Shown here in pieces: positions 2 to 46,889 of a DNA stretch of 64,000 nt; the stretch's first letter is position 1, and every line of letters begins with the position of its first letter. This DNA comes from Lytechinus pictus (Eukaryota): the NCBI RefSeq assembly GCF_037042905.1, contig NC_087245.1, positions 28,088,001-28,152,000 of the forward strand, written 5' to 3'. The notes under the pieces are model-generated. The model worked only from the letters and a program-made list of their open reading frames with translations, was not told the DNA's origin and searched no databases. Both the position numbers and the translations under genes were made by a program.

Positions 2-3000
2 AATGTAGTTCCTTTCATAGACTGGAACCATCTTGTTTTAGTAATTAAGCCTTCCGATCAACAAGATGTATTTTCACTAAGATTGGCATTGATTGATTCT
101 GATGGTCTCACCAAAACTTGGGAAATAACCATTACTGAAAATATCTTTGTCTCAAGCTTCTATATTGTCTTTGGTCAATGGCTGCCAGGTGAGGATACTT
201 ACATTCCATCCCCTGTATCTCGTCCATTCCGTGGTTCCATTGACGAGTTTTACATCTGGAAGAAGGAGCTTTTGGTAACAGAGGTTCTTGCAAGATTGGG
301 CAGTAGTGTACTTCCTGGCCCAGCAGACCTTGTGGCTCTCTGGAAGTTTGATGAAGGTCAAGGGAACACGGCAACAGATTTGGTTAACCAAAAACAGTTC
401 ATGATAAGGCAGTACTCATGGAATGTAAGAACGCCCATATGGCAGTTTTCATCAGCTCCTATCAGCTTGTACTCTCCAACATATATTTTGCATAATCCTT
501 CTGAGTGGTTTCAGTCCTGTGTGGAATTGTTTGCGACGATCAGTTCCACTTGTCATTCCGTCTCAGATCAGATAGATGTTTATCTAGTTGCATGTGCAAG
601 GGACTATGCTTTGTCCAATTCTGAGTATGCAAGACTTGGGGTACTCCTTTCGTATGCAGACGTATGCCATCTGAATTCAGAATCTACACTGAGTTGGCCT
701 GCACAGGATCTTTGCAATTCCTTTGATGTTTATTTTCCTCTTTGGTATGGACCATCTTGTGAATCAAAGTGTTACTTCTCATTAGACACTGATTCACCAA
801 TATCAAACTGCACATGTTCTCCGGGAACTTGGGGAATTGAATGTGATTCATCCTGTGTAGGAGGTGTGGGGTCACATTGCAATGGCCATGGCACATGTTC
901 TCCTGCTAGTGGATCTTGTCAATGTGAGTCTAACTGGATGGGCAGCAGTTGCGATGTGTGTAGTCAAGGATGGTTCGGAAGTGACTGTTCCCTAACCGCC
1001 AGTAGAACCCCTGACATACCTCTGTCAAGGTGCTCCATGTACATCAATGGACATATCACTATGTTTGATGGTTCTGTCTTTGAATTTTCAGATACCAGTG
1101 ATATGGTTTTCTTCTCTTCCTCAGATATTGAGATTCAAATAAGGCAGATTCCTTGCAACGGTTTGCCATCATGCATCACAGCAGTATCATTTGCCACTGG
1201 CACAAGTCACATGCTTTTATCTGCTCCTCATTTGCAACAATCGGATCCAGTCATCTTGCTGAACAATGTCACACTGCCATTGGAAACTGAGCTATTTGTG
1301 GGATCTACTGGTTTTTCTCTTATCAGGGTTGCGGTTGGTCACTTTGAAATAAATGGACCAAATAACTTTAAGTTCAAGATATTAAGTCCCGGAGCTTACT
1401 TCAATTTAGAGGTTTTACAAACAAATTGCATCTTCTCTTCTGGACTTTGTGGTCCCTGTCAAGTAATGGCCACATCATGTGGTGATTCTCAAGCTCTGTG
1501 TGCAATCAATAATCTCGGCTTTGTTGCTTATGCATCACTCTACCCATTAAGCTTTTCATTATCACAACAATACGGTGCCAGCTATGTGAGATATGGACCT
1601 TCAAGTTTAATATATACACAGCTGTTGGCAGCATCTCAAGCTACCTATATCCCAGTCTTTGGGAGCCCTTCAGGTTATGCCTTACAGTTCTATGAAGACG
1701 GAATCATGAGTGATCCACTACCAAGTTTTTTCTCTGCTGGACGAACCACCACACTTCAATGGTATTGCAAATTCACAGATATTCCTGGGGGTACCTTGTT
1801 TTCTGCTTCAGAGAGCAAATCATTAGCGGTAACAGTAGGAGATGATGGTAACTTCTGGATTCATGCAGGATTCGAGTCCCAAACAACAGGCATCATTGCT
1901 CCACAGAATGACTGGTTATTTATCATGGTATCATACTCCTCAGATGATGGACAGATTGTCTTCTATTGCGTCAAGTCATCTGGTGCAGTGTATAAAGCTT
2001 CTTTGAACTTTTCTTTCAGGGTACAGCTTATTAGCCCTGGAGTTGTCCTTGGTATTGGGTCTTGGGTATTACCATCCACTGGTTCAGTGCCTTTGCCAAG
2101 AATGCAATTTCATGGAATGATTGACAACCTCATAATAACAAAAGACAGCTTTGTGACTTTGAATGAAGTACTGGTAGCCTGGAAACAGCAATTTTCCCCA
2201 GGTGACCCTTCTGTTGTTCTTTATTTGACCTTTGATAAGGGTACTGGTGCTAAATTCTATGATGCTGCATCTAGTATTCCATGGAATATTCCACAGAGTT
2301 TACATAGGAAACCATCCTGGGTTGTTAGTGATCTGCCGATCGTTCCCCAACCTGGGAGGGAGATTTTCACCCTCCAAGTTAGCTTCTCAGATGAAACCTT
2401 AGAAAAGGATGCCCTTGCAATATGTAGGGAACAAATTTATGATGGTCCTGTTGATCAGGCATGTGGAAGCTTAAGCGAATCAGCGCAATACCACTACCAA
2501 GCATGCTTGAGCATAATTGCCTCTTCAGGAAGGCTTCGACTCTCTCTGGATGCTACTCTGGATTTTTCAAGTGGTTGTCAAGAAGTGTTACATCTCCCTT
2601 CTTCACCTGCTCAACAGCTGTGCAATGCATTCACTGATACATTTTCTTGGCCATATGCTGGAAGTACCTGCAGTGAGCGATGTGTCTTTGGATACTTCAC
2701 AGACCACTGCATATGTGACCGAGGCTACTACGGAGCTCAGTGTGATCAGACCTGCCCCGGAGGACCCAACAACCCCTGCAACGCTCATGGATCTTGCAAT
2801 CCTGTGACAGGCCACTGCATGTGTGAACCCAACTGGGAGAGTGGAACTGACTGTACAACATGCTCAGAAGGTTATGTTGGAGAAGATTGCTCAATAGGCA
2901 TAGTTCCCCAACCCCCTTCCACAACATCCATATCTGTTGTCTGGCCTGACACAATAACTACTTATGCAGGACTTCAGGTGCCATTGATGTCATTTGGTAT

Positions 3001-3049
3001 CTTCATCATATCTGATGCTACTGCTCCAGGATTTCGTTTCTACTGTCAT
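2..3049 (+). CDS. Giant VWD/LamG/C8/EGF repeat membrane protein, coding exon A (5'-truncated by the window edge)
   Basis: The frame of ORF 83..3064 is open back to base 2 (NVVPFIDWNHLVLVIKP..., a LamG-type WxHL motif), so the exon starts upstream of the window. It ends at donor CAT|gtaagt (3049/3050, phase 0). Encodes the end of a LamG-like domain (GSIDEFYIW, LVALWKFDEGQG), then C8-like, EGF cluster, VWD (GHITMFDG), LamG-like, C8-like, EGF cluster and the start of a VWD. Confidence 0.9.
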
Positions 3050-3512
3050 GTAAGTTTGAATTGAGGATTATTTTTAAGGTGACAATTCCTACTGATGTAG
3101 ATTAGTGTTATAGGTTCCTTGCCCCACTTTGAATTATCTTATCCATGATGTTTGCCTACCATGACATTATTGTCCATAAGCAAAACTTGTATTCATCAAT
3201 CTTCACAGATGTTAAATCATATGTTCATAGGAGCATGTAAAAGGGTTAGACTAGTATGCCTTGCATTGTAAGGGCCAATAAATGTTTGAAACATTTATTT
3301 TGGAAGCGCACATAATTTTTCTATAGTAATGTGATACTGTTAAGGTTGCACATTCCCATCAGTTTTACCTTAAATACCAGTTTACATGTATTATGAAACA
3401 ATCTCAACTCCTTACAATAACTTGTGTAAATAATATGCATGTTAACAATTTTCTCTCAGTTTTATCATGAAGCAATTTATGGATTTCATGTGATGTACTT
3501 TTCTTTTTCTAG

Positions 3513-4456
3513 GTGAACCTTATTCCATCTCCTCAAGGATTTGTGATTCTTCTTATCACCTTCAGCCACAATGATGTGCGAATACGATTTCATCTCGATA
3601 GAAGAACACAGGAAGTGAATACAGTGGTAGGAGGTTTCCTCACACAGATTGATGATGTCATTACTAGAACCGATAGCCATGGCAATACTATCACCATCAA
3701 TCATCCGTCACCGGATCACTATGAGGTTGAGTGTGCGACTGGTTTGACACTGATGGTGATGGTCTCAGATGGCACACTTGGTGCAGAGATCAAGTTATCT
3801 CGAGGCGCTTGCTGTTTGGGTGGACCATCATGGGGAGGACTTGCTGGTTTTTGCCATTGCAGCCACAGAATTATAAAACCCACACATTTCTTCAATGAAA
3901 CCGACAGTAACTCAGACATCACAAAAAAAACCTTGGAATGGATGACAACAGATGATGTATCTTCAGGCAATGATTCATTTGAGTATGTGCTACCGGGGGG
4001 CTTTGCTGGATTTTCAATTAAGCTAAACAACTCATTAGTATATGTTGACTCAGTTGCAGCTTTCGTCAGCAATGCAATCACGATATCAATAAATGTGAAG
4101 TTCTGTGGCCCTGCTTGTGGAGGTGTCATCTTCGCATATGCTGGAGCATCCACCTTCCTCGTATCCGTTGAGACTTTTGTGACCCTCCATGTTGATGATA
4201 TCCTGTACTCAACTGATCTTCAACCTGCCATTGGGAACTGGACTCAAGTCAGTTTGCTCTATGATAGGTCAAACCTCGTTCTTCAAGTATACCTCCATGA
4301 CTTCTCAGGCTATGCAGCATGGCGAAGCATTCACCTTGATACAGATGTCTTTGAACCCCTTGGCAGTCTGGCTCTAGGAAACTGGTTTCCAGGTTCTTCA
4401 TACCCAAATCTAGGCATCTTTCATGGAGATATTGATGAGTTTACCGTTTGGGACAG
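3513..4456 (+). CDS. Same gene, exon B (rest of a VWD domain and most of a LamG-like domain)
   Basis: Pyrimidine-rich acceptor ttctttttctag|GTG, phase 0, matching exon A. Donor TGGGACAG|gtat, phase 2. Contains WTQVSL and FHGDIDEFTVWDR LamG/pentraxin-like motifs. Confidence 0.88.
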
Positions 4457-4498
4457 GTATTCTATTTTTTTTTTAATGTGTAATGTTCAAAGGAAGGT

Positions 4499-4830
4499 TT
4501 AACCTTAAAAAGTCTGGGCTACATGTATTTCGCTACCTAAGAAGACGGGGGGCTGATTCAGCCCCCCCCCCCCTTATAAATCTCGGCCATCGATCACATG
4601 ATCGCAACAAAAATTGGTACTCGCGCTACCCATGGCATAATCTACAAAACAGTAAGATAAAATTCTGCAAAAAATCTCATTGCCTATTAATTATGCTAAT
4701 TTATGCGCAAAATAAAAGTTTGCTCTAATTAACTAAATAATGCCCCTTTAAAAATGCTAAGTTCTGGTTCACAGACTTTATAGGGTTCTGATCAAATGTA
4801 CTTGAAAAAAATTCAATATCCCATTTATGT
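4499..4830. mobile_element. Possible end fragment of a piggyBac-type non-autonomous element
   Basis: Begins TTAA-CCTTAAAAAG, then a ggggggctgattcagcccccc palindrome. The other end was not found. Confidence 0.3.
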
Positions 4831-4831
4831 T

Positions 4832-5541
4832 TCTAGTTCATAAAAATTGGACATAAGGGTAATAGAGTATCAATGAGCATCTTGCCTGAGTTTTGGGTCA
4901 CTTGACCAAGGTCAAAGGTCATTTAGGGTCAACGAACTATGGTCATGTTGGGGGTAATTGTTGCATTGTCATCATAACTTTGAAAGTTTATAGATCTAAT
5001 TCATAAAACCTGGTCATAAGAGCAGTCAAGTATCACTAAACACATTGTGCAAGTTTCAGATCTTACGACCAAGGTCAAAGGTCATATAGGGTAAACAAAC
5101 TTTGGCCATGTTGGGAATATTTGTTGAATTGCTATCATAACCTTGAAAATTTATTGATGTAGTTCATAAAACTTAGACATAAAAGTAAGCAAGTATCATT
5201 GAACATCCTTGGTGAATTGTCAAATAACCAATGTCAAAGGTCAATGAAATTTGGCATGTTGGGGTTATTGTAGAATTGACATCATAACTTTGAATGTTAA
5301 TGTAGCTAGTTCATGAAACAAGGACGAAAGGATAATCAGATATCACTTATTGTTTTGCATGAGTCTTTTGTCACATGATCAAGGTCTAAGGTCATTTAGG
5401 GTAAATGAATAGAGTGTTTTATTATCTTCATGAATGGTGTTTTTGCTTAAATAATTATTCAATATTCATTTTCATATTCAGCACAGCTGCTATATTGAAT
5501 CGCATAATGCAGGCGAGACTGCCAGATGCGTTCCACTTGTT
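4832..5541 (+). repeat. About 4 copies of a ~160-bp tandem unit within an interspersed repeat (possibly Helitron/Helentron-related)
   Basis: ttcataaaa...catAAG anchors at about 4837, 5000, 5163 and 5310. AGGTCAAAGGTCA at 4909 and 5072 (period 163), with degenerate copies near 5231 and 5382. Ends ...ccacttgtt. Confidence 0.7.
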
Positions 5542-5590
5542 TTCAATATATATCTGTAGATATATATGTTTAAAGGAATTTGAGGGTATA

Positions 5591-5960
5591 TTTTTATGCC
5601 TCCGCCCTTCATAGGTGTCCATCCCGTTTCCATTCTCACATTTTTAAAGAAAGTTTGAGATATCAACTTCAAGTATGTTCATCCATTCTGATTGAAAAAT
5701 AACTGAATAGTTTTGTGGGTCATTAAAAGTAAAAAGTCCAATGTCATATATACTCGTAAATTTATTGTTCACATGACAACTTACAACCCTGGTCAAATAT
5801 GGTTTTGTAAGTGAGGATGATCTGATTAGATTTTTGGGTCACATTGTCAGAAGACACCAAGGTAGGAATTTGACAATTAAAGAAGTAATATGTAGTACAT
5901 TCTTCTTGTAATGACAGAGGCATAAATTCTTACTGCATATTATTGAGAATCCAATTGATT
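5591..5960 (+). mobile_element. DINE-1/HINE-like (Helentron-derived) non-autonomous element, degraded
   Basis: Starts TTTTTATGCCTCCGCC. Its subterminal inverted copy GAGGCATAA is at 5917-5925, about 35 bp from the T-rich end. Confidence 0.45.
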
Positions 5961-6108
5961 GAACTATGTGCATCAGCTTACAGAGCTATTCTGCAGAGCA
6001 GTATATTAAGTTATATTGCTAGCTTGTTTACAAATAAATCAATGAATGAATATTTTACCAATACTAAAATCCTTTGTTTATTGTCCTCATGCTTTATTTT
6101 ATGCCTAG

Positions 6109-6206
6109 GTTTTTAGATGAAGCTGAACTTCGAGCCCTTCTGAGAGCAAGTCCTCTGTCTTGCACCCCAAACTTGGTAGCTCAATGGAGATTTGATTCTT
6201 TGAATG
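6109..6206 (+). CDS. Same gene, exon C (98 nt; FLDEAEL...LVAQWRFDSLN)
   Basis: Acceptor atgcctag|G completes the split Arg codon. Donor AATG|gtatgt, phase 1. LVAQWRFD aligns with LVALWKFD and LTAFWPLD in the other repeats. Confidence 0.85.
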
Positions 6207-6252
6207 GTATGTGGAATTTCAAACTACTGACCATGAAATTTCTGTCTTATAT

Positions 6253-6545
6253 GGGGGCATTGTGGCACATTGGATTAGTCTTAGGTCTTGGGTTCAAATC
6301 CCAGCCATGGTGTACTTTGTAATACCTATGGTGTAACTTGTAGCGCCCTGCAATTGCATTGTGCTGCAATCAACCCAGGTGAGGTGTTCCTTGCAGTATT
6401 TAATTCCTTGAGATTCTTGTGCGCTTTAAAACGCCGCTAGGCTATTGTCAGGGTAATAATATTTATGTCCTCTGAAGCACATAAAGATGTTATATCATAT
6501 TGTGATGTGTTGTACAAGAACTATATGCATTGTTATTGTTTTGTT
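6253..6545 (+). mobile_element. Degraded tRNA-derived SINE
   Basis: Head GGGGGCATTGTGG, B-box GGTTCAAATCC at 6291-6301, body CAACCCAGGTGAGGTG, and a (TTG/TTA)-rich tail. Confidence 0.6.
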
Positions 6546-6726
6546 TTAGAAATGGGGATTTGTCAGAGTTATTGCATTTAATTTCCTTTTTTTTAGAATG
6601 TATGTTAATTGCAAGTACTTATATTTACACACTTTTCAGAATTGGCATTTTGATTGTGTTAATAGATCACAAGTTATAATGTTTAGTTGTTTATGCTCGC
6701 ATTTCTTAATCCTACATTTCCTCTAG

Positions 6727-6997
6727 GCGACATGATATTGGACTCGGTGTCTGATGTACCAATGCACCTGTCATCCCCTGGCTACCAATCTCCTGAACTT
6801 GTGACCTCTGACCTGGAATTGGATGTCCCAGGATCAGGCATACCTCCAGGAGAAGATTCTGCGTTAAACCTGCAAGGGACAGTAGTCACTGATGGCAATG
6901 GATTTGATGTCATTGATCCATGTGGGCAGGAAACCTCCGTAGGATCTTGGATTGAGGTTTTCTGCTCTGATATCATCTATTCAGGACCTCTTGGACA
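6727..6997 (+). CDS. Same gene, exon D (end of LamG-like domain, linker, start of C8-like domain)
   Basis: Acceptor tttcctctag|GC completes a Gly codon (phase 1). Donor GGACA|gtaag, phase 2. FCSDIIYSGPL aligns with ICREQIYDGPV and ICEMMFFEGPL. Confidence 0.85.
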
Positions 6998-7233
6998 GTA
7001 AGATTTTTTTTTGTGTGTTTTTTTTTATTTATGATATCTTTTCAGTTGAGATTTTTAATGCAAAATCAAGTAATGACCATTTATGTTTTGAAGCTTTAGA
7101 AATTCAGTAGTTTGCTGTTATTTCTGTATTTCTACATATTGATGATAAAATATAATGTTTATTCCTATTAACCACTATTAGTGTATCATTTTGATAATCA
7201 AACATAAAGCACATTTTTCTTTTTTCCTTTCAG

Positions 7234-8907
7234 GGAGTGCCAGCTTGGTCAGTCTGCCTCATTGGATGTCTATGTAGAATGCGTGAAGGCTCTTGAGAAT
7301 ACAAACAGCACTGAAGCAGCCCTACCAATCATCATCAGATATGCAGACTTCTGTCAGGCTACACTGTTATTATCTTTCTGGCCAGCTCAGACACTCTGCA
7401 ACAGGTTTGGAGATGCTCCATTCCCATTGTGGATCGGGGATGACTGCGACATCCAGTGTGTCTATGGTAACAAGGATCTCAATGACCGTAACATCTGCCT
7501 CTGTGATGCAGGCCACTGGAATGTATCCTGTGATAAGGTTTGTCCTGGTGGATCCAACAATCCATGCAATGGTATAGGTGTGTGCAACAGGCTGACAGGA
7601 CATTGTGACTGTCCAGTGAACTGGCAAGGAGCTCCAGATTGTTCTGTCTGTACTCCAGGATGGACTGGGGCTGGATGTGCTCTGTCTAAGATGCCCATCG
7701 GTCTTGGAGAGAGGATATCATCCATTGGCCTTTCTTTCATCACAACATATAATGGATTTACTTTCCAGTTTACCCACATTGGAGAGTATCAGCTTTTGGT
7801 AATAGGGCATCATCAATTTGGTCTTCAAGCCAAATTTGTTAATTGCTTTACACAAAAATCGTGCATGCAACACCTGGGCTTTTACTTTGGTGACAATGTC
7901 AATGGTTATGGGTCTGTAACAATAAGTGCTGGGGAGCATCCTAAAGACTTCATGTCTGTTAGATTAAATGGAAGATCATATGATCTGCATACCAATGTGA
8001 CCTTTGGGAATGCTGGGTACGTCTTTAGGAGACTATCCTTGACTGAAATCTTGTGCACTGGTCCAGATGGATTGAGGTTAACTGTGAGGTCATCTGGTTT
8101 GTACATCACACTTCAAACAGAATTACCTGAAATCCTGTGTGCTGTATCTCAGGGTCTTCTAGCAGGTGGTTGCTGTAACTCAAGCTCCAACTCCACATCA
8201 CCCTTTACCATCCCTATGCAACCTCTGAAATGTCCTGGCATCAGTGGTTTGGAAATAAACCCAGCACCTCTTAATGATTCTGACTATACCTATATCACTG
8301 ATGATTCCATACCTGCATGTCAAGATGGACAGGGAACAAGGTCATCCAATTTCAATGACCTCCTACATGCCTGGTTAATCAACAACTGTGAGTCTGTCAT
8401 CAGTTACCGTTCTTTGCTGATACAGCATCAACAGCAAATCGATTTCAATCTTCAGCTCAACCCTTCTGTCCTCTTCGTCAAGGAACTTATTTCCATTGCC
8501 CCTGTCAAATATGATGTCACTTTTGAGCTGTTTGTGAAACTTCTTGACCCTTATGGTGTAATCTTGTCGTTCTCACACTCCTCGACATTTTCCTTGTATG
8601 TCAATGGCACTCTTCATATCAACCTTGGGGGTATTGTTTACACAACTTCACTGAGGCTACAACTTCAAGCATGGTATAAGATTGTGGTAGTGTTCACTGC
8701 TTCAAGCAACAACCATGTCAACATCTATCTTGTGACTTCTACTCAAGATGTTTTCAGAGAAACGATTGATCTTCTTCATCACCCTGATTTCTTCAAGCAG
8801 GCTGGATACCTTGCACTTGGTTCTTGGCTTCCAAGCTCCAATGATGTAGGTGTTTCTTCTCTACCAGGTCTAAGGGGACATATTGATGATCTACGGATAT
8901 GGAATAG
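7234..8907 (+). CDS. Same gene, exon E (C8-like, EGF cluster, VWD, most of LamG-like)
   Basis: Acceptor tttttcctttcag|G completes a Gln codon. Donor TGGAATAG|gtatgt, phase 2. Motifs YADFC...WPAQTLC, CPGGSNNPCNGIGVC, FITTYNG and GHIDDLRIWNR. Confidence 0.9.
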
Positions 8908-9434
8908 GTATGTTATTATGTACATGGCTTTATAGAATTGATTATCTGTAAACAAACCTTACAGAGTTTGACCTGATGAATAAAACAGTTTTGATAAATC
9001 ACATTCATAGGACATTACTCACACAGTTCCGTTGCCTGTTTCTTAAAAAGTAAAAATCACATGAAATTTTTATTTCCATGTGGTATACATGTAAATCATG
9101 CTTCATAATACTTAATCAAATACAATGTTAAACCCTTTGTTTTCTCTCTTTTTGTTGATATCCACTTGCGGACAGACTTTTCCCTCTGAAACTATGTTGT
9201 AAACCATTTAACATGTGATCGATAGACACAATTGCATACCAAATTGTATGTATTTGACTTGTAATATAGAATAATAAAATAATTGTAATACATGATAGAA
9301 TGACACATGGTGTTCCGAAATATGTCACTGAGCATTGACTTTATACAGAGTATTAGTAACTTGTGTAAAGGCTACATGTAGCTTCATAAACTTTAGTAAT
9401 TCTCATTGCTCCTTTTATTTCTTTCCATTTGTAG

Positions 9435-12400
9435 AGCTTTCACCCCTGGAGATGTGGCTACACTTTGGACTACCATAATTCCAGATGATGCTGAGTTCCT
9501 GACAGCATTCTGGCCTTTAGATGAAGGACAGGGAGATGTTGCTGTGGACATTGTTCAAGGCATTTGTTTTCATATGCCAGATGAACCATGGTCACCATCT
9601 GTGTGGGTCACTTCGGATATCATCAATCCCAGCCAATCTGTTCCATTACCAGATAGTCATTTGAATGCCAGTATTAATGTTTGTTCAAGACTTTTCTTTA
9701 CTGATCCCTTGCATGGTGCATGCCAACCATTCCTTGGCCCAACCACAGCCTCGTACCATGATCTCTGTCTTCAAGCCGCCGATGATGCTGGAGAAGGAGG
9801 AGCATATAATGTTGCATTTGCATATGCTGATATCTGCCAAACGATTTTGAACCTGACCAGTTGGCCTGCCCAGCCACTCTGTAAAGAAGTTCCACACCTC
9901 AGAGCTGGTAGCCAATGCAAGGGTGATTGTGTTAATGGAGTAGAAGTCTCAGATGTTTGCTATTGCCATGAGGGTTTCTTTGGAAACCATTGTGAATTAG
10001 TTTGCCCCGGTGGCTTTGTAAAACCTTGTAGTAATCATGGAGTGTGTGATCCTCAAGGACAGTGCAGATGTGAACAAAACTGGCAAGGTTCTGTAGATTG
10101 TAGTACGTGTTCTGGCAATTGGGAAGGCATAGATTGTACACTAGTACATACATCTGTCCTGGTTGCTTCACAAGGTGGTCATCGAATCAATTACAATGCT
10201 TTGATAAGTGTCCATACCCAATATATAACATTTGATGGTCTGACTTTCTACTTTGGAGCAGTTGGAGAATTCTACCTTGTAAGAACTCAGAGTTTCCGGC
10301 TGCAAATACGCCAAGTCCCATGCTTCACTGAAGGTACATGTGTTGCAGCATTTGCAGTCTTCTCAGATGAAGAGCAGATTGTGTTCCATGCTCCTTACAA
10401 TAGTGGAGACGTGCCAATTCTCTGGCTTAACCATAGAATTATTCACATAAGCCAAATTGAGACTATGATAACCCAGCATTGGTTGCTACATGAGTTGCAA
10501 CAAGGAAAATACAAACTAACATTCCTAGAAGAAGGCTACTCTGTTGATATCCAAGTCATTAGAAGACATCTCCAACTAAGTATTTCATTACCACAACAAA
10601 CCTGTCAAGATTCTGAAGGATTACTTGGGAACTGTAACGGTGATGTCAGTGATGATTTTCGTGGACCTTTGAATTCCACCACTCAACAGGACATTAATGG
10701 AGAGATAGCCGACAGTTGGCGTGTACCAATCAATGAAAGCTACTTTGTACACTCCTATGGCCCATACATTGAAATGCCTATACCATCGGGAGCTATCTAC
10801 AGCCTTCGAGTTGACCACACTGGTGCTGTTACAACTCCAACAAATTTCACCATTAGAAATGCCACCTTGATTGAATCAATAACAATCAATTTCAGGATCA
10901 AGGTTCTCGCTGATGAAGGAGTTATAATTTCATTGAACTTTGGAAGAACAGTTACAATGTACCTTGTGGGTTCACATCTAAGAATATATGACAGCTTGCT
11001 CCACTATGATACAGCTATCGTACTTGCTGAGAATTTATGGATCCAAATCTATTTTGTTATCACAGCGAATGGTACCATTCGGTTATATGCCTTTACAGAT
11101 ACGGGTATCAGCAATTCATACACAACAAATATTGCATCCTTCCCTTCATTCATGGATGATTTCTACATATCCATTGGTCAGCACATCATACAGCCAACCG
11201 AGAATAATATTCTGTTGCTTTCTTCATTTGTGGGGGATATTGATGACTTGCGTTTGTGGTCCAGACAATTTCACCCAGCTCTCATTGACCAAGGAAGAAC
11301 GGTGAACTTATTTGCCAATGTTGACCAAGAATTCCTTATTGGACTGTACCGATTTGATTTCAGTTCTTCTAGTCACATGGATGATGTTCAAAGAATCAAT
11401 CTACTGAGTCCTCATGATCCCTGGCCAAGTCCTTGGACCATACCTTCTGACGCCAATGTTGACATCTCGATAGCGGATCCATTCGCAAGGACATTCAACA
11501 ATAAAAGTCTTGCCGCTGACGCAGTGGATATATGTTCTTTCCTTGACCCTAATAGCAATGTCAGTACATGGGATCTGTGTTCAAACTCGACAGAAGCCTT
11601 CCAAGGCTTTTTCCATTTATCATGCCTAAGGACAGTTTCAACCTCAAGATCTACAGATGCTGCATTTGCACTGATGTCCTCTGTGTTAGATTATTGCGCA
11701 ACTTTAAATGGAGAAAATGTCAGCTATGATGGATTATGTTTCATGTTAAGAAACAAAAGACTGCCCAACTGGTTGTTAGACCTGTGTGATGCATCATGTA
11801 TATATGGAACACCTGATGCTGATGGAAAGTGTTCTTGTCACAGTGGCTTTTGGGGAGTCAGCTGTTCCTTTGATTGCCCAGGTGGTCACTCTCATCCCTG
11901 CAATGACAATGGACAGTGTCTACGTGAAGGAATATGTGAGTGTTTACCTAATTGGTCTGGTGATGAATGCAATCAATGCAACCATGGATGGTCTGGTGAG
12001 GATTGCTCTCTAGGAATTGCTCGTATTGGAAATAGTCTGGAAGTCAACACACAGAATGCATATTTCAGCATGCATGGCAGGATTGTAACCTTTGATGGAG
12101 CTTCCATCTTTCTTCGTAAAGGCTACACATACAACATCCTCTCTGGTATCCATTTGGATCATCAGTTCAAATTGAAATTGAGGCTGTCAGATTGTGTGAA
12201 TGCTCATGGCTTCACATTATGCTATGATGCCATTTCTGTCAGCTATCACTTCCACACAATTACCATGAATGTCAACACCAATTTTCGTTTCGGAGTCGAT
12301 GTCTGGATCAATCATCACCTGATTGCATTAGACCATATTACACAAATCACTGAGAACTTCATCATCACAAGACTTAATATCATTCAGTATGAGATCAGCC

Positions 12401-15400
12401 TATCATCAACAATTCGAATCATTGTGACTGTTCATGAGAAAGAGCTAGAGATACAAGTCATTGCACCAACAGAATACTGCATGATTGAAGGATTATCGGG
12501 ACTTCTTTCTTCCTGCAACACCCCTGGTGAACTTTCAGATACATCATGTACTCTTTCTAGGAATGGCAGTACATCAAGCAACCAAAGTAGTAGTAACTGC
12601 TCTTTTAACGGCACACAGAGCAGCATTGATAACTATACATCTAGATTCATTGCACAAGAGATATACAATTCCGAATATGAGTCTCACCTAAACCTGCTAC
12701 CAACTCAGGGTGCTGGCTACTTCCTCTTCTTCAAGGACAGTATTGTTGTTTCTGCAGAGATGTGGAATTTCCCAACAGAGCTTTTTACTCTTGAAATGTA
12801 TGTTCTACCGCTAAGTGTTGATGGGGTTCTCCTGTCATATGGGACCAGTCAAGGGATATTTGCTTTACTTCTGTCCAACACCAGTCTCCAGGTATCTTAT
12901 GGAACCGCCTTGTATGACCTTGACCTTTATGTTGAGCTAGACGTGTGGCAGCAGATCACTCTTGTTTGGCATCAAAGTACCTTAATCCTGGAAATATATC
13001 TCTTCGATCTACAAGGTTCGATTAGAGTTAATGCTATACAGTTCCAATCAGCCATTTTCCATCTTGGAGGACATCTTGCATTAGGGCAATGGTATGCCCA
13101 TGTACCGTTTGATGCTCCAGCTCTACCAGCAGTTCCATTTGAAGGTGGCTTGGATGAAATCAGATTATGGACAAGGAGGACCAATCCATCTGTAGTTAGA
13201 TCAAGCTGGAAGTTCAATGCTGATGTGAATACACCAGACCTTACAAACCTGTGGAAGATGAATTCTGGAGTTGGGGATACTATTGTAGATGTAATTGGAG
13301 ACTACAACCTTAAGCCTGTGGATACCCATCTTGCATCATGGCAGATATCAGAGGATATCTACACCAGTAGAAATATTTTACCCTTTATCTTCCCTGTCTT
13401 CCGCACAGCCAATCTATCAGACCTGGCTCATACGCTTTGTCATCAAATATTTCTGCAAGGTCAGTTGTTTGAAAATTGTCAAGAACTTGATGACATTTTC
13501 TTCTCAAAATATCATACACAATGCTTATATGACATTTCTTTCCAATCTGATGTCAATGCTGCTATCCAGGCCACAATTGCCTTTGCAGATATATGTTTCC
13601 ATGAACTGACCTTGACAAGTTGGCCAGCACAATACCTTTGTAATACCTTCCAAGATAGAGATTTCCCATACTGGATTGGAAGCGAGTGCGACATCCCATG
13701 CTTGTTTGGAAAAAGGAATGATACAAACAGTGATATCTGCGAATGTGAAGTTGGCTACTGGAAAGATGACTGCAGTAGTCCCTGTCCTGGTGGTATCATC
13801 AACCCGTGCTCAGGACATGGATTGTGTGATAAACAGACAGGTCATTGCTCCTGTGATATTCACTGGTTGGGAAAAGTCAGCGACATGGAATATTATCCAT
13901 GCAATGAATGCTCTGAGGGGTGGATTGGCACTGATTGTTCTACAACCACTATTTACCACAACTTGACTGATACCAGAAATGAAGCAGTTGCCATCTTTTC
14001 GAGTGGTGCACATGTCACAATGTTCGATGGAGCAAGCTTACAGTTTGATATCCCTGGATTATTCAGTCTACTTTCTACAGCACGTTGCAGGATCAGCATA
14101 TTTGTGAAACCATGTAATGGTAGGACAGCCTGCCGTGAACTTGCAGAAGTATACATCTCCAGTGGGGAACAGCAGTTGTCTGTAAGAACTCATGGCAGTT
14201 CACTCCTTGTGACACTGTACTTTCAAGAAGTATGGACAGAAATGAGTGTTGGATCACAGCAGACCATGAGATTCGGGATTGGAGTTGACTTCAAGGAAAG
14301 TGGATTCATTTCTATCACTGTGATTGATGGCCTCACCATTGACGTAACACTATACGCAAATATGATGTCAGTGGTCTTATACATTCCTGAGAACATTGAG
14401 ACAGGACCTGATTCTCTTCTAGGATCCTGGGATTTTAACTGGCTCAATGATATCAATGTGGGCTATCCCTCTGCCGGAAATGATCTCGATTGGCTTCCTA
14501 TCAATTCCACATATTTTCAGGAATCAGTCTATTCTCAGGAATACATCAACAGCTTCATTGCCAAGTTCTACAGGATCGCTGTTGATGAGGTGAATTTCCA
14601 GCATCCCATGGCAGCAGCATTCACGAGTGGCAGTTTCATGCTACGCTTCCAAAATGGAATGTTAACTTTCATCGATCTTCCTTTGCTGGTTCTCAATCAG
14701 TTCAGTCTTCAGTTTTGGATCCGTGTTCATGACACAACCAGAGCGCATCAAACAGTACTCACATGGCACTCAAGGAGTCTGGTTGTTCATCTGGAAAAAA
14801 CAAACATAGTTGTAACTATTAACAATCGTGTCATCCGTACTACTCTATCTCTTTCAAGTGATGTCTGGTTCCACCTGGTAGTAACATGGAGAAACTATGA
14901 TGGAAGATTGATTTTGTATTTGTACAACTCCAATATTGATCTAACTTCTACTTTCCTTGTGTTTGGTGTCTCAACTGCACAACATCTTGAACTGCCTCAA
15001 ACTTTATCGATTGGACAATCCTCTAACGACCAAGGCACTTCACTTGGTGGAGACATTGATCAAATCATCCTTCAAAACAAACATATCAATGATGCCATTG
15101 CCAAGAAAATGAGGGATATCTACACAGATGAACTTTCAGAGGACATAGTGTTGGCAATTCCTCTTCAGGAAGGGATCGGTAATGAAACCATATCGAGAGG
15201 TCAGAATGGTTCTCAATTTGTTGGGCGTCTTGAAGGATTAACTGTACCACAATGGATGCCATCAGATGCACCCTTTTCTATATTACCTGACTATGCACCA
15301 GACTTCATACCTGAGGAATTTGAAAAAGAGTCATTCCAAATCTGTGAGATGATGTTCTTTGAGGGTCCACTCTACAGCAATTGCCGTGACCTTGAAAGCA

Positions 15401-15951
15401 CACATCATTTCTACTACGAGTCCTGTCTCGAAGACATTGCAGCAACGGGTAATCTCAAAGCTGGCAACATATCGGCAAATATGTTTGCTATTCTCTGTAA
15501 AGAAGCTTTGAACATCCCAGAGGTTCAGCTGTGTGGGTTTTACAATTACTGTCGTTACGAATCTTCAAGCCTTCTATGGTGGTGGTGGATACTACTGCTC
15601 ATTCTGCTCATTCTGCTCATCCTTATCACCATTGGTGTTTGTTTCTACCGGAAGTTTCAAAAAAATCATCCTGGAGGTCGATCAGATGGTACAGTGATGA
15701 GTGCCAAAGAGACGGACACGGATCAAGGCCCATGTCAAGGTGTATCCAGTTCATCAGGTTTTGTGTTTGGTGAACAAGCCAATGATGATTCCAGAAACAT
15801 CAAGGACCTTCTAGTAAAAAATTCAGAAGCTAAGTATGATATAGAGATGAGTGCCATAAAGACCGACAAAGATGGAGATTTTGTCTTTGCTGGACCATCT
15901 TATGCTGATAGTCAACACACTGATGAATCTGAAGATGATTTCCTTCATTAA
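9435..15951 (+). CDS. Same gene, terminal coding exon F (6.5 kb): three further super-modules, transmembrane helix, cytoplasmic tail, stop
   Basis: Acceptor ttccatttgtag|A completes an Arg codon, and the frame is open to TAA at 15949-15951. CPGG EGF clusters at about 10003, 11875 and 13783. VWD TFDG/MFDG motifs at about 10230, 12090 and 14020. Hydrophobic LLWWWWILLLILLILLILITIGVCFY at about 15571-15648, followed by RKFQK. Confidence 0.93.
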
Positions 15952-28830: not shown

Positions 28831-28970
28831 TAAGTTATTTTCAATCCTCACAACAAATTATTTGAATTTATTTCTTTGTATATTGTTTCACTCTTTTCAT
28901 TTCCATTGTTCCTCCTCCTTAATTTTCGATTTACAGACATTAAAGACTGGTCTTCTGGTGGCTTTTTGGT

Positions 28971-29684
28971 ATGGCAAACACTTTAGGAATCCGTGTTGTT
29001 CGACCGGTAACACTCCGAAAGTTTCATCAACCTGAGCTCGACCTTTCAGAGGAACGTGACACCGATCCTCTTTTATCGGCCAACAGAGTGCGCACTTCTC
29101 ATCAACGAATGGCAGGGGATTGTCAGCCAAGCAAATCGTGGAATGCACATTCAAATCCACAATCTCAGTCAAGCACTGTCGACCGTAGTACGCAAACACA
29201 CTGCACGGACGATATTCTACACACAGATTTTCTTATTCGGGGCACGGCTGCAGACGACAGAGTAGACATGCCAGTATCGTCTACACTCACACACTATTCC
29301 ATGCACAAAAATAGCCAGGATTTCTCGAATTTCGAGCCGAACTGCCCAAACTCGATGGACTATCACTCTCATGGTGGAACTTTAACCCATTCGTCTCCGT
29401 TTAACGGGATTAAACAAGCAGGATATGACACTTATGGTAGCGAGTTAGAGTATCGAGTTGGAGCGCCGATTCTCGGGGGAGATACTGGTAACGGTGGAGT
29501 TGGTAGCGGCTTTGGTGGCGGACCATTGCTGAAACAAGGTGGATCTTTGGTAGACGAGTTTGGACCCAAAGAGGCGCCACATAAACTTGGAAGTAGCAAG
29601 GATAGCTATACTAAAATGACGAGAGCGGTGACACAGAAACCCGAAGGAATCGGGGAATCATTAGCCTGGCTCAAACGAGAACTG
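28971..29684 (+). CDS. First coding exon (238 codons) of a FAM167/AARD-like (DUF3259-type) coiled-coil protein; 3' exon(s) not found in window
   Basis: Acceptor ttacag|A at 28936/28937, in-frame TAA at 28941-28943, then ggtATGG in good Kozak context. Donor CTG|gtgagt at 29684/29685, phase 0. The exon ends GIGESLAWLKREL, which resembles my recollection of the FAM167 motif IDEAxxWLRxEL. The remainder is low-complexity Ser/Gly/His-rich sequence. Confidence 0.7.
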
Positions 29685-29977
29685 GTGAGTACAGATCCCC
29701 CGATAGATCTTGATTTCACATGTATTTTATAATTTTGTTGAGGTTGATAAAAAAGTGTGTACGGTTGATTCATAATGGCATTAGTGTTTTTTCTTTCTTT
29801 GATTGGCGGTGTTATGTTTTTGCTTTTCATCTTAACAATCGAATTACATTAAAACAGACGTAGATCTATTGTGATATTTTTAATATAACTTAAGCGTAGA
29901 AGATTTTTATATGAATGAAATCAAAATATTCATAAAAGTTGAAAGAAAAATTATTTGAAGGTCGATCTGCATTTATT

Positions 29978-46535: not shown

Positions 46536-46889
46536 TTCATTTTCTGACAACCATTTTCTTTTCAAATGAAGATTGTATCACAATTTTCCCACAATTACAT
46601 GTGCTTGTGTTTCCTCTCGGGAACATGACTGTTACCAGGCATGTTTGTCAGTCCTACTTGATTTCGTGAAATAGACCAGCAATTAAAATTAAGTGTTTGA
46701 AAGTCGGAATATTCATTCTCTGACAACCATTGCCTTTTCAAATGAAGATTGTATCACAATGTTCCCAAAATTACATGTACATGTGTTCCTCTTTGGAAAT
46801 AGATGATTTGTTACCAGGCATGTTTGTTAGTCCTACTTGATTTCGTGAAATAGACCAGCAATTAAAATAAAGTGTTTGAAAGTCGGAAT
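46536..46889. repeat. Local tandem duplication, 2 x ~177 bp
   Basis: ttcatt(t/c)tctgacaaccatt...aagtgtttgaaagtcggaat occurs at 46536-46710 and 46712-46889 with scattered differences. Confidence 0.9.

Follow-up and report, generated by a model that had tools for sequence, protein, structure and literature searches.

A 64,000-base stretch of the Lytechinus pictus genome (NC_087245.1, positions 28,088,001 to 28,152,000, forward strand), referred to here as the window, holds the last exons of a gene predicted to encode a membrane-anchored surface protein of more than 20,000 amino acids (aa). Coordinates are counted from window base 1 (G000:C1:28088001; window end 28152000; 812-Mb genome), with 0 the base before the window and negative numbers upstream. 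Within the window, six exons, all AG/GT-ended and with compatible phases, splice to 12,552 nt that encode 4,183 aa plus a stop codon, with zero internal stops. The same single frame had been proposed in a first-pass annotation made from the window sequence. The annotation also proposed that the gene continues upstream, which it does for about 196 kb. The features of the gene are listed below.

2..3049, plus strand: part of an exon, with the end of module 3, module 4 (anchor 854), and the start of module 5 (anchor 2753)
3513..4456, plus strand: exon of module 5, with the remaining VWD and the greater part of the pentraxin/LamG domain
6109..6206, plus strand: exon of 98 nt inside the module 5 LamG domain; its position was set manually using phase and a conserved W-x-F-D motif
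6727..6997, plus strand: exon, with the LamG end and the start of the C8-like helices of module 5
7234..8907, plus strand: exon, with the end of module 5 and the EGF (anchor 7541), VWD, and most of the LamG of module 6
9435..15951, plus strand: last exon, with the end of module 6, modules 7 (anchor 10003), 8 (11875), and 9 (13783), the transmembrane helix, the tail, and the stop codon
11875..13782, plus strand: module 8, the module folded as an example, with an EGF-like unit, VWD (aa ~59-235), pentraxin/LamG insert (aa ~279-497, about 12709-13365), helical C8-like domain (aa ~512-577), and EGF-like unit
about 15577..15655, plus strand: the one transmembrane helix; the 98-aa cytoplasmic tail after it is acidic and has no recognized domain
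-7395..-6122, plus strand: two small exons directly before the 7,872-nt exon (start -4822)
-20706..-10200, plus strand: EGF-rich exons
upstream of -20706, back to -196074, plus strand: about 95 exons of glycine-rich repeat, of which the first, at -196074, has the sole signal-peptide-like segment
G000:C1 about 27,891,900-28,081,900, plus strand: the 106 modelled exons outside the window, with the signal peptide, about 30 putative beta-helix repeats, the EGF array, and a small domain

Repeat modules and the full gene model

The exon at 2..3049 is 7,872 nt in full, starts 4,822 bases upstream of the window, and carries modules 1 to 4 and the start of module 5. EGF anchors with the pattern CxGG at 854, 2753, 7541, 10003, 11875, and 13783 are spaced 633, 639, 645, 624, and 636 codons apart, exactly as first annotated; a seventh CxGG, at 3813, sits within a VWD and is not an EGF anchor. 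When the anchor-to-anchor units were aligned locally, all 15 pairs scored between 151 and 546, compared with best scores of 46 to 68 in 20 shuffles per pair. The similarity among the six units is not due to chance. Pfam recognized VWD (E 5.9e-22), Laminin_G_3, and a teneurin-type EGF in the window open reading frames (ORFs), in agreement with the domains originally named for the repeat unit; no C8 or TIL model matched in these ORFs, and the C8-like call is backed instead by the predicted fold described below. The only strong hydrophobic segment of the window chain is the helix at about 15577 to 15655, as expected for the suggested membrane anchor, here in a type I arrangement with a single C-terminal transmembrane helix. 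For each of the five window introns, between 16 and 50 homologues, P0001 (4,805 aa) among them, have a best alignment that crosses it.

Extension upstream had been suggested as the way to find the signal peptide and the full repeat count; a predicted signal peptide was reached, and the modules number nine in total. For this, 300 kb upstream was fetched, and exons were chained in phase by a codon-model and splice-site search. Four places in the automatic model were corrected by hand: the first exon, the exon at 6109-6206 (where the automatic model had put 6305-6378), a spurious 29-nt exon at -38234, and a skipped exon at -73534. Because the automatic version miscalled these four places, further small errors are likely in the N-terminal part of the model. 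The corrected model leaves no unused plus-strand candidate exon above the chosen threshold.

The 112 exons of the model are spread across 212 kb, sum to 62,241 nt, and encode 20,746 aa, or about 2.2 MDa; the window portion is only the last fifth of the gene. The chain begins with a signal peptide and continues with about 30 repeats to aa ~13,050 (referred to here as the rod), an EGF array, a domain of about 100 aa, the nine modules, the transmembrane helix, and the 98-aa tail. The glycine-rich rod repeats, about 400 aa each (317 to 557 aa), have a median pairwise identity of 27% and make up about 63% of the protein. The EGF array comprises 1,732 aa with 292 Cys in about 49 EGF-like units. No family was assigned to the small domain between the array and the modules, and its ESM Atlas matches were all under 0.9, a lead only. 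The modules are 602 to 645 aa each, the last slightly shorter, and account for about 28% of the protein. The whole model has only two hydrophobic segments, one per end (signal peptide and transmembrane helix), 204 N-glycosylation sequons, and 629 Cys. None of the protein pieces scanned contained a catalytic or signalling domain, and no PDZ-type motif is evident by eye at the C terminus of the tail. Candidate paralogues were also lacking: among the best candidates scored, all 10 module matches and all 20 rod-repeat matches in the genome map to this locus. The first-pass picture of a surface filament of EGF-VWD-LamG-C8 modules thus likely holds, but it has to be revised as a picture of the whole protein, in which the modules form only the membrane-proximal ~28% of ~20,700 aa and a predicted beta-helix rod and an EGF array lie upstream of them.

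Predicted folds of the modules and the rod

Module 8 was folded with 42 sequences (predicted local distance difference test, pLDDT, 85.5; predicted template modelling score, pTM, 0.83). The model matched MUC5B with a structural Z score of 24.1 (root mean square deviation, rmsd, 3.6; 289 residues aligned over model positions 53 to 631), VWF at 21.8, and both MUC2 and FCGBP at 20.9. Its residues 279 to 497 match pentraxin/LamG folds at Z 17 to 20, including Limulus SAP-like (18.1), PTX3 and NP1 (17.9), and SAP (17 to 18). Profile searches with the module found MUC2 (E 9.9e-13) and NP1 (E 4.7e-7), and Pfam on the gene-model pieces found VWD (E 9.4e-30) and, for the EGF array, EGF_TEN (219.5 bits). 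A helical domain is predicted after the insert in module 8, and the gene pieces, like the window ORFs, gave no Pfam C8 match. The predicted fold indicates that the module is one mucin/VWF-type D assembly with a pentraxin/LamG domain of about 220 aa inserted between the VWD and the C8-like helices. From the aligned ranges, the EGF-like units would stand where mucins have TIL and E. The pentraxin family signature is absent from the module consensus. A GLLGxCN-like loop that ends in D is retained in several VWDs, and we take it to resemble the Ca-site loop. The other modules of the gene are 20 to 26% identical to module 7.

A rod piece of 1,171 aa (aa ~10,900-12,070), folded with 70 sequences, was modelled at pLDDT 88.9 as nearly all-beta with long glycine-rich loops. 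The top structural match was HMW1 (Z 18.0, rmsd 4.6, 256 aligned), and further matches included EtpA (15.2), HxuA (13.7), tapirin (13.5), pertactin (12.3), fungal Awp1 (11.3), and antigen 43 (10.8). This model suggests that the rod is a parallel beta-helix like those of bacterial adhesins. Two results weigh against reading much more into it. Polysaccharide lyases and tailspikes occur in the same match list at Z 9 to 12, and thus a shared beta-helix fold does not show adhesion; furthermore, Foldseek returned no match to the rod model at E <= 0.001. At the sequence level, rod pieces gave nothing above the cut-off in Pfam and no PDB sequence match, and none of six proteins matched in NCBIfam. The ESM Atlas placed the rod piece with unnamed clusters at 0.95, mostly eukaryotic (Mollusca commonest) but also bacterial, and with one cluster that has G8 on 41% of its members. 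An ALK/LTK-type fold for the glycine runs was considered and found no support in the structure-match lists, although absence from these lists does not exclude it.

Non-repeat insertions interrupt the rod at model aa ~276-400, ~3,540-3,680, ~4,500-4,660, and ~5,720-5,780. By eye, three of the four look like small beta-sandwiches (discoidin or galactose-binding-like) and one like a furin-type Cys repeat; the exon frames tested gave no match in Pfam. The rod of P0020 (S. rosetta PTSG_13036) has two mutually similar insertions of its own, at about aa 1165-1400 and 1830-2060, which do not align to this gene and look beta-propeller-like by eye.

Relatives and continuity of the chain

The rod exon at -31892 had 1,175 protein matches among 7,998 scored candidates. 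Named proteins among the best 120 include Salpingoeca rosetta PTSG_13036 (44% identical), Actinostola (51%), Dreissena (48%), and Ptychodera (50%), with a range of 44 to 52% across the choanoflagellate, anemone, mollusc, and hemichordate proteins. The module profile found 388 representatives at E <= 1e-30, a count that includes proteins with LamG or VWD alone in common; the species-named ones among 20 representatives checked were from Ptychodera, Nucella (two), and Apostichopus. In line with the initial failure to recognize a named protein with this repeat unit, the named relatives are labelled only hypothetical, uncharacterised, or VWFD-containing, and several are adjoining pieces of one locus. 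Identity in the module region is about 24 to 35% in distant relatives and 52% in the closest, compared with 44 to 72% for the best-conserved rod repeats. The gene appears to be single copy and older than animals, with relatives from a choanoflagellate to acorn worms.

The modules keep their identity by position. All nine Ptychodera modules have their best match in the same-numbered module of this protein, as do seven of seven in Nucella, the seventh weakly. A quick module tree agrees, although its branches are long and 16 of its 36 forks are open, and a point on the other side is that the modules of P0001 match by position only in part. Since the modules are position-specific in both Ptychodera and Nucella, the ordered layout is at least as old as the bilaterian ancestor. 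Because modules keep their position across relatives, a fixed structural role would fit better than that of a variable receptor.

Other relatives depart from this layout. P0215 and P0218, from Joint Genome Institute (JGI) metagenome contigs, have the small domain and one LamG-bearing module, followed by numerous plain VWD-C8 repeats in which Pfam matches C8; in P0215, EGF units precede the small domain. Their LamG-bearing module groups with module 1 (support 86). We infer that their source is a unicellular relative of animals. In choanoflagellates, VWD has been reported together with C8 but not with TIL (in excerpts of PMC4948705). A metagenome scan with P0215 found one 2.9-kb contig, with the EGF array only. 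P0223 and P0231 have plain VWD repeats followed by LamG-bearing modules and are possibly the membrane-proximal part of proteins of the P0215/P0218 type. Prokaryotes yielded two loci from 92 pattern matches. One (L059:31-2343), on a contig filed in a Polyangiaceae metagenome-assembled genome, shares 52% identity with the animal-type rod and lies behind a trinucleotide microsatellite; the contig is probably a mis-binned eukaryote one. The other (L060:228-3440) encodes a 1,070-aa Verrucomicrobia protein with 30% identity, a signal-like start, and shorter glycine-rich repeats, and it adjoins a 2,144-aa repeat-rich surface protein. These prokaryote matches are too few to claim gene transfer or its direction.

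We consider a single chain above 20,000 aa highly probable. The alternative is two or more adjoining genes, of which the upstream one would encode a secreted beta-helix protein and another an EGF-module membrane protein, as in the public annotations, where the records are in pieces (Ptychodera XP_070533134.1 and XP_070533132.1, Nucella KAL8620494.1 and KAL8620495.1, and several Dreissena DPMN numbers) and PTSG_13036 stops just before the EGF array. This alternative is improbable in view of what joins the parts. One exon, and likewise one Ptychodera protein, contains both the final rod repeat and the first EGF units. P0314, a single 7,665-aa ORF on a 23.8-kb contig of another organism, runs from the rod end to the transmembrane helix, colinear with aa 12,915-20,586 at 31.7% identity, and Ptychodera XP_070533132.1 (P0154) aligns to aa 14,289-20,611 at 34.6%. 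The EGF array is spliced in RNA-like contigs: all six modelled introns in -20706..-11766 are seen as joints within 0 to 3 bases of their sites, five of them reading GT..AG, and the contigs extend beyond the acceptor at -20706. These joints come from contigs of runs X2 and X3 only, which belong to one study, are about 96% alike, and are guessed to be RNA. Among the data sets listed as carrying the sequence, none is on record as RNA. Farther upstream, nine homologues bridge the 14.5-kb intron at aa 6,955, the repeat motif runs on across the 27-kb first intron, and a repeat profile derived from aa ~10,900-11,740 and homologues matches continuously across 72 of the 95 rod-region introns. Moreover, the model holds just one signal peptide and one transmembrane helix.

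Several observations weigh against a single chain. The contigs that cover exons are shallow (depth 2 to 9), their splice joints stem from the one study, and their RNA nature is a guess. Run X1 gave exon pieces without splice joints, and the one raw RNA run, X15, of which about a quarter was read, gave no exon coverage. The best alignment of a homologue bridges 29 of the 111 modelled junctions: none of the six at aa 9,944-10,322 is bridged, nor is any upstream of aa 6,900, where the queries were later protein parts only. Likewise, aa 1-6,870 had no homologue or RNA support with these queries, and 23 of the 95 rod-region introns fall outside any profile match. On balance, homologues and RNA-like contigs indicate that aa 6,870-20,746 are, for the most part, one chain, to which aa 1-6,870 would belong as the gene model has it.

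The 14.5-kb intron also contains frames at -71741..-69993 on both strands that we take, by eye, to be Tc1/mariner-like transposase; since near-identical peptides face each other on opposite strands, a fold-back copy is suggested. In the same intron, on the strand of the gene, an 824-aa open frame at -68952..-66481 looks like a long interspersed nuclear element (LINE) endonuclease/reverse transcriptase. Intronic low-complexity sequence includes a long C/T-rich tract at about -9150..-7995 and a trinucleotide microsatellite at -119940..-119270. Two-copy tandem repeats of 163 and 179 bp occur at window positions 4904-5205, inside an intron of the gene, and 46536-46889, and a 262-aa S/T/G-rich open frame without a Pfam match at 28944-29732 (plus strand) is possibly an exon of a downstream gene.

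Relation to known families and possible role

The folds are known, but their arrangement differs from that of each family compared. Mucins, VWF, and FCGBP also have VWD domains, and the module superposes on MUC5B, VWF, MUC2, and FCGBP from the VWD through the helical and Cys-rich end. However, these proteins have contiguous VWD-C8-TIL units (excerpts of PMC4948705), whereas here a LamG/pentraxin domain lies between VWD and helices, EGF-like units follow, and TIL is not matched. Gel-forming mucins are secreted and have a proline-threonine-serine (PTS) region, whereas this protein has nine units anchored by one transmembrane helix and no PTS region, with at most 36 S/T/P per 100 aa. MUC4 and SUSD2 have VWD and EGF beside one transmembrane helix, as here, in the layout NIDO-AMOP-VWD-EGF-transmembrane helix, and GDPH is the MUC4-type self-cleavage motif. 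NIDO and AMOP were not matched by Pfam in the pieces scanned, and GDPH occurs nowhere in the 20,746 aa; among the relatives, it is kept in the membrane-proximal (last) VWD of P0001, P0002, P0155, P0166, P0188, and P0214. P0220, an unnamed European Nucleotide Archive protein of 7,101 aa, was rejected as a homologue, its only match being to VWD; it is a giant transmembrane protein, a SUSD2/MUC4-like array of ten repeats of about 700 aa, in each of which a VWD with GDPH is accompanied by parts that look, by eye, like AMOP, sushi, and IPT.

Bacterial two-partner and autotransporter adhesins (HMW1, EtpA, HxuA, antigen 43, and pertactin) and fungal Awp have a surface parallel beta-helix rod, as predicted here, but the likeness is of fold only, at 8 to 13% identity and with no sequence-family or PDB sequence match. 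This protein differs in its ~13,000 aa of ~400-aa repeats with long glycine-rich loops, its EGF/VWD anchoring, and its eukaryotic transmembrane helix, and neither the two-partner secretion domain of TpsA nor a beta-barrel translocator was found with NCBIfam or with Pfam on the pieces. The EGF array scores far above the cut-off with Pfam teneurin EGF models, yet it has about 49 units, compared with 8 to 18 in teneurins and tenascins. Teneurin is type II with an NHL and YD/RHS shell, whereas this protein is type I, with a signal peptide and a C-terminal transmembrane helix, and gave no NHL or RHS match in the pieces scanned. Tenascins are described in excerpts of PMC11401434 as chordate proteins with FN3 and C-terminal fibrinogen domains, human TNX having 18 EGF units; FN3, a fibrinogen domain, and a heptad region were not seen here, and the C-terminal pieces end in the transmembrane helix and tail. 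The fold of the pentraxins themselves appears to be present in the module insert, as judged from structural Z scores and the NP1 profile match. Drosophila dumpy, ADGRV1, and usherin are very large single membrane-anchored extracellular tethers; they are built from other repeats (ZP/DPY, Calx-beta, and FN3), and none is known to have a beta-helix rod or D assemblies. An oyster protein of ~16,000 aa labelled Tenascin-X may be an orthologue, but it was not confirmed by the literature search.

The protein lacks a defining feature of each of mucins/VWF/FCGBP, MUC4, teneurin, tenascin, and the bacterial adhesins, although it shares folds with each. To our knowledge, no animal protein has a 13,000-residue adhesin-type beta-helix or a D assembly with an inserted pentraxin domain. 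Full-text literature searches, whose scope excluded supplements and most subscription journals, found no description of this family, of PTSG_13036, or of the other accessions searched, and excerpts of PMC12549020, PMC11401434, PMC6337334, PMC7853314, and PMC11452194 contain no description of this protein. Pieces of it could stand in supplements under automatic names.

The signal peptide, the single transmembrane helix, the 204 sequons, the lack of a catalytic or signalling domain, and a length and order fixed since early animals argue for a tethered structural filament. The gene would produce a type I membrane glycoprotein of about 2.2 MDa that projects from the cell as a long filament. The rigid beta-helix rod, with its roughly 30 repeats, would form the outer part; a disulfide-bonded EGF spacer would come next, then nine D assemblies each with a pentraxin/LamG domain, and finally the transmembrane helix and a short tail. 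The rod may reach far out and cross-link to its own copies or to surface glycans, and the D-assembly beads may hold and space it near the membrane. The extended length would be roughly 0.35 to 0.4 micrometre, counting about 13 rungs per repeat (by eye) at 0.48 nm, 49 EGF units at ~2.5 nm, and nine beads at ~8 nm. We favor, with a probability of about 0.5, a structural tether of the cell coat (glycocalyx), with microvillar or ciliated surfaces as its putative location and with its own copies or surface glycans as putative binding partners.

It is also possible, though considerably less probable, that the protein is an adhesin or lectin that captures microbes or food particles: on feeding or barrier epithelia, the rod and the nine pentraxin-like domains would attach to bacterial or algal glycans and pass them to phagocytosis or mucus. 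The predicted rod fold resembles glycan- and cell-binding adhesins, the module inserts have pentraxin folds (Limulus SAP-like, PTX3, and SAP, as above), bacterivores and suspension feeders are among the named relatives, and divergence is faster across the modules than in the best-conserved rod repeats. However, a single copy without paralogue expansion and a module order fixed across bilaterians speak against this, as do the absent pentraxin signature and a tail without a recognized signalling or uptake domain. The same single copy, conserved rod, and positional identity weaken two of the functions first suggested, gamete recognition and variable pattern recognition. A gamete-recognition protein presenting diverged lectin-like domains is very unlikely: VWD arrays build zonadhesin and egg-coat proteins, and the modules are only 20 to 26% identical to module 7, but species-specific recognition proteins usually evolve fast or by homogenized repeats, whereas here each module keeps its orthologue across phyla and rod identity is ~50% with a cnidarian and 44% with a choanoflagellate. 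In hair bundles, usherin, ADGRV1, and tectorin serve as mechanical links, and in collar-type sensory cells a link of this kind that connects cilia, microvilli, or cells would account for the type I tether with fixed length and module order, for the VWD and LamG/pentraxin domains, which also occur in those link proteins, and for a low, patchy RNA signal, which would fit a rare cell type. Yet FN3, cadherin, and Calx-beta domains are absent from the pieces scanned and the tail has no evident PDZ-type motif, and we regard such a link as rather unlikely.

A further, speculative and rather unlikely reading is an ancestral choanozoan filter-feeding or collar-complex filament, in which a bacterial-adhesin-type beta-helix of ~200 nm was joined to a mucin-type D assembly before animals arose, formed part of the choanoflagellate flagellar vane or collar mesh, and was kept, encoded by a single giant gene, on the ciliated epithelia of marine invertebrates; it would have stayed unseen because annotation cuts the gene into pieces. 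The choanoflagellate flagellar vane is described in excerpts of PMC9671500 as filaments ~3.5 nm wide, of unknown composition, and resistant to proteinase K, a property that its authors interpret as pointing to carbohydrate or glycoprotein. The vane is a candidate site, but since vanes extend micrometres the protein could be only a part of one.

If the model holds, the protein is among the largest encoded by animal genomes, and about 63% of it falls outside any Pfam or NCBIfam family in the pieces tested, while databases hold split hypothetical proteins. It offers a concrete gene for the open question of what makes up the fine meshes on the surfaces of choanoflagellates and of ciliated epithelia in invertebrates, with an orthologue in a genetically tractable choanoflagellate. 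The finding also bears on the origin of mucin D assemblies: if the choanozoan filament proposal is true, relatives of the P0215/P0218 type, in which a single pentraxin-bearing module precedes plain VWD-C8 repeats, would represent a stage before mucins.

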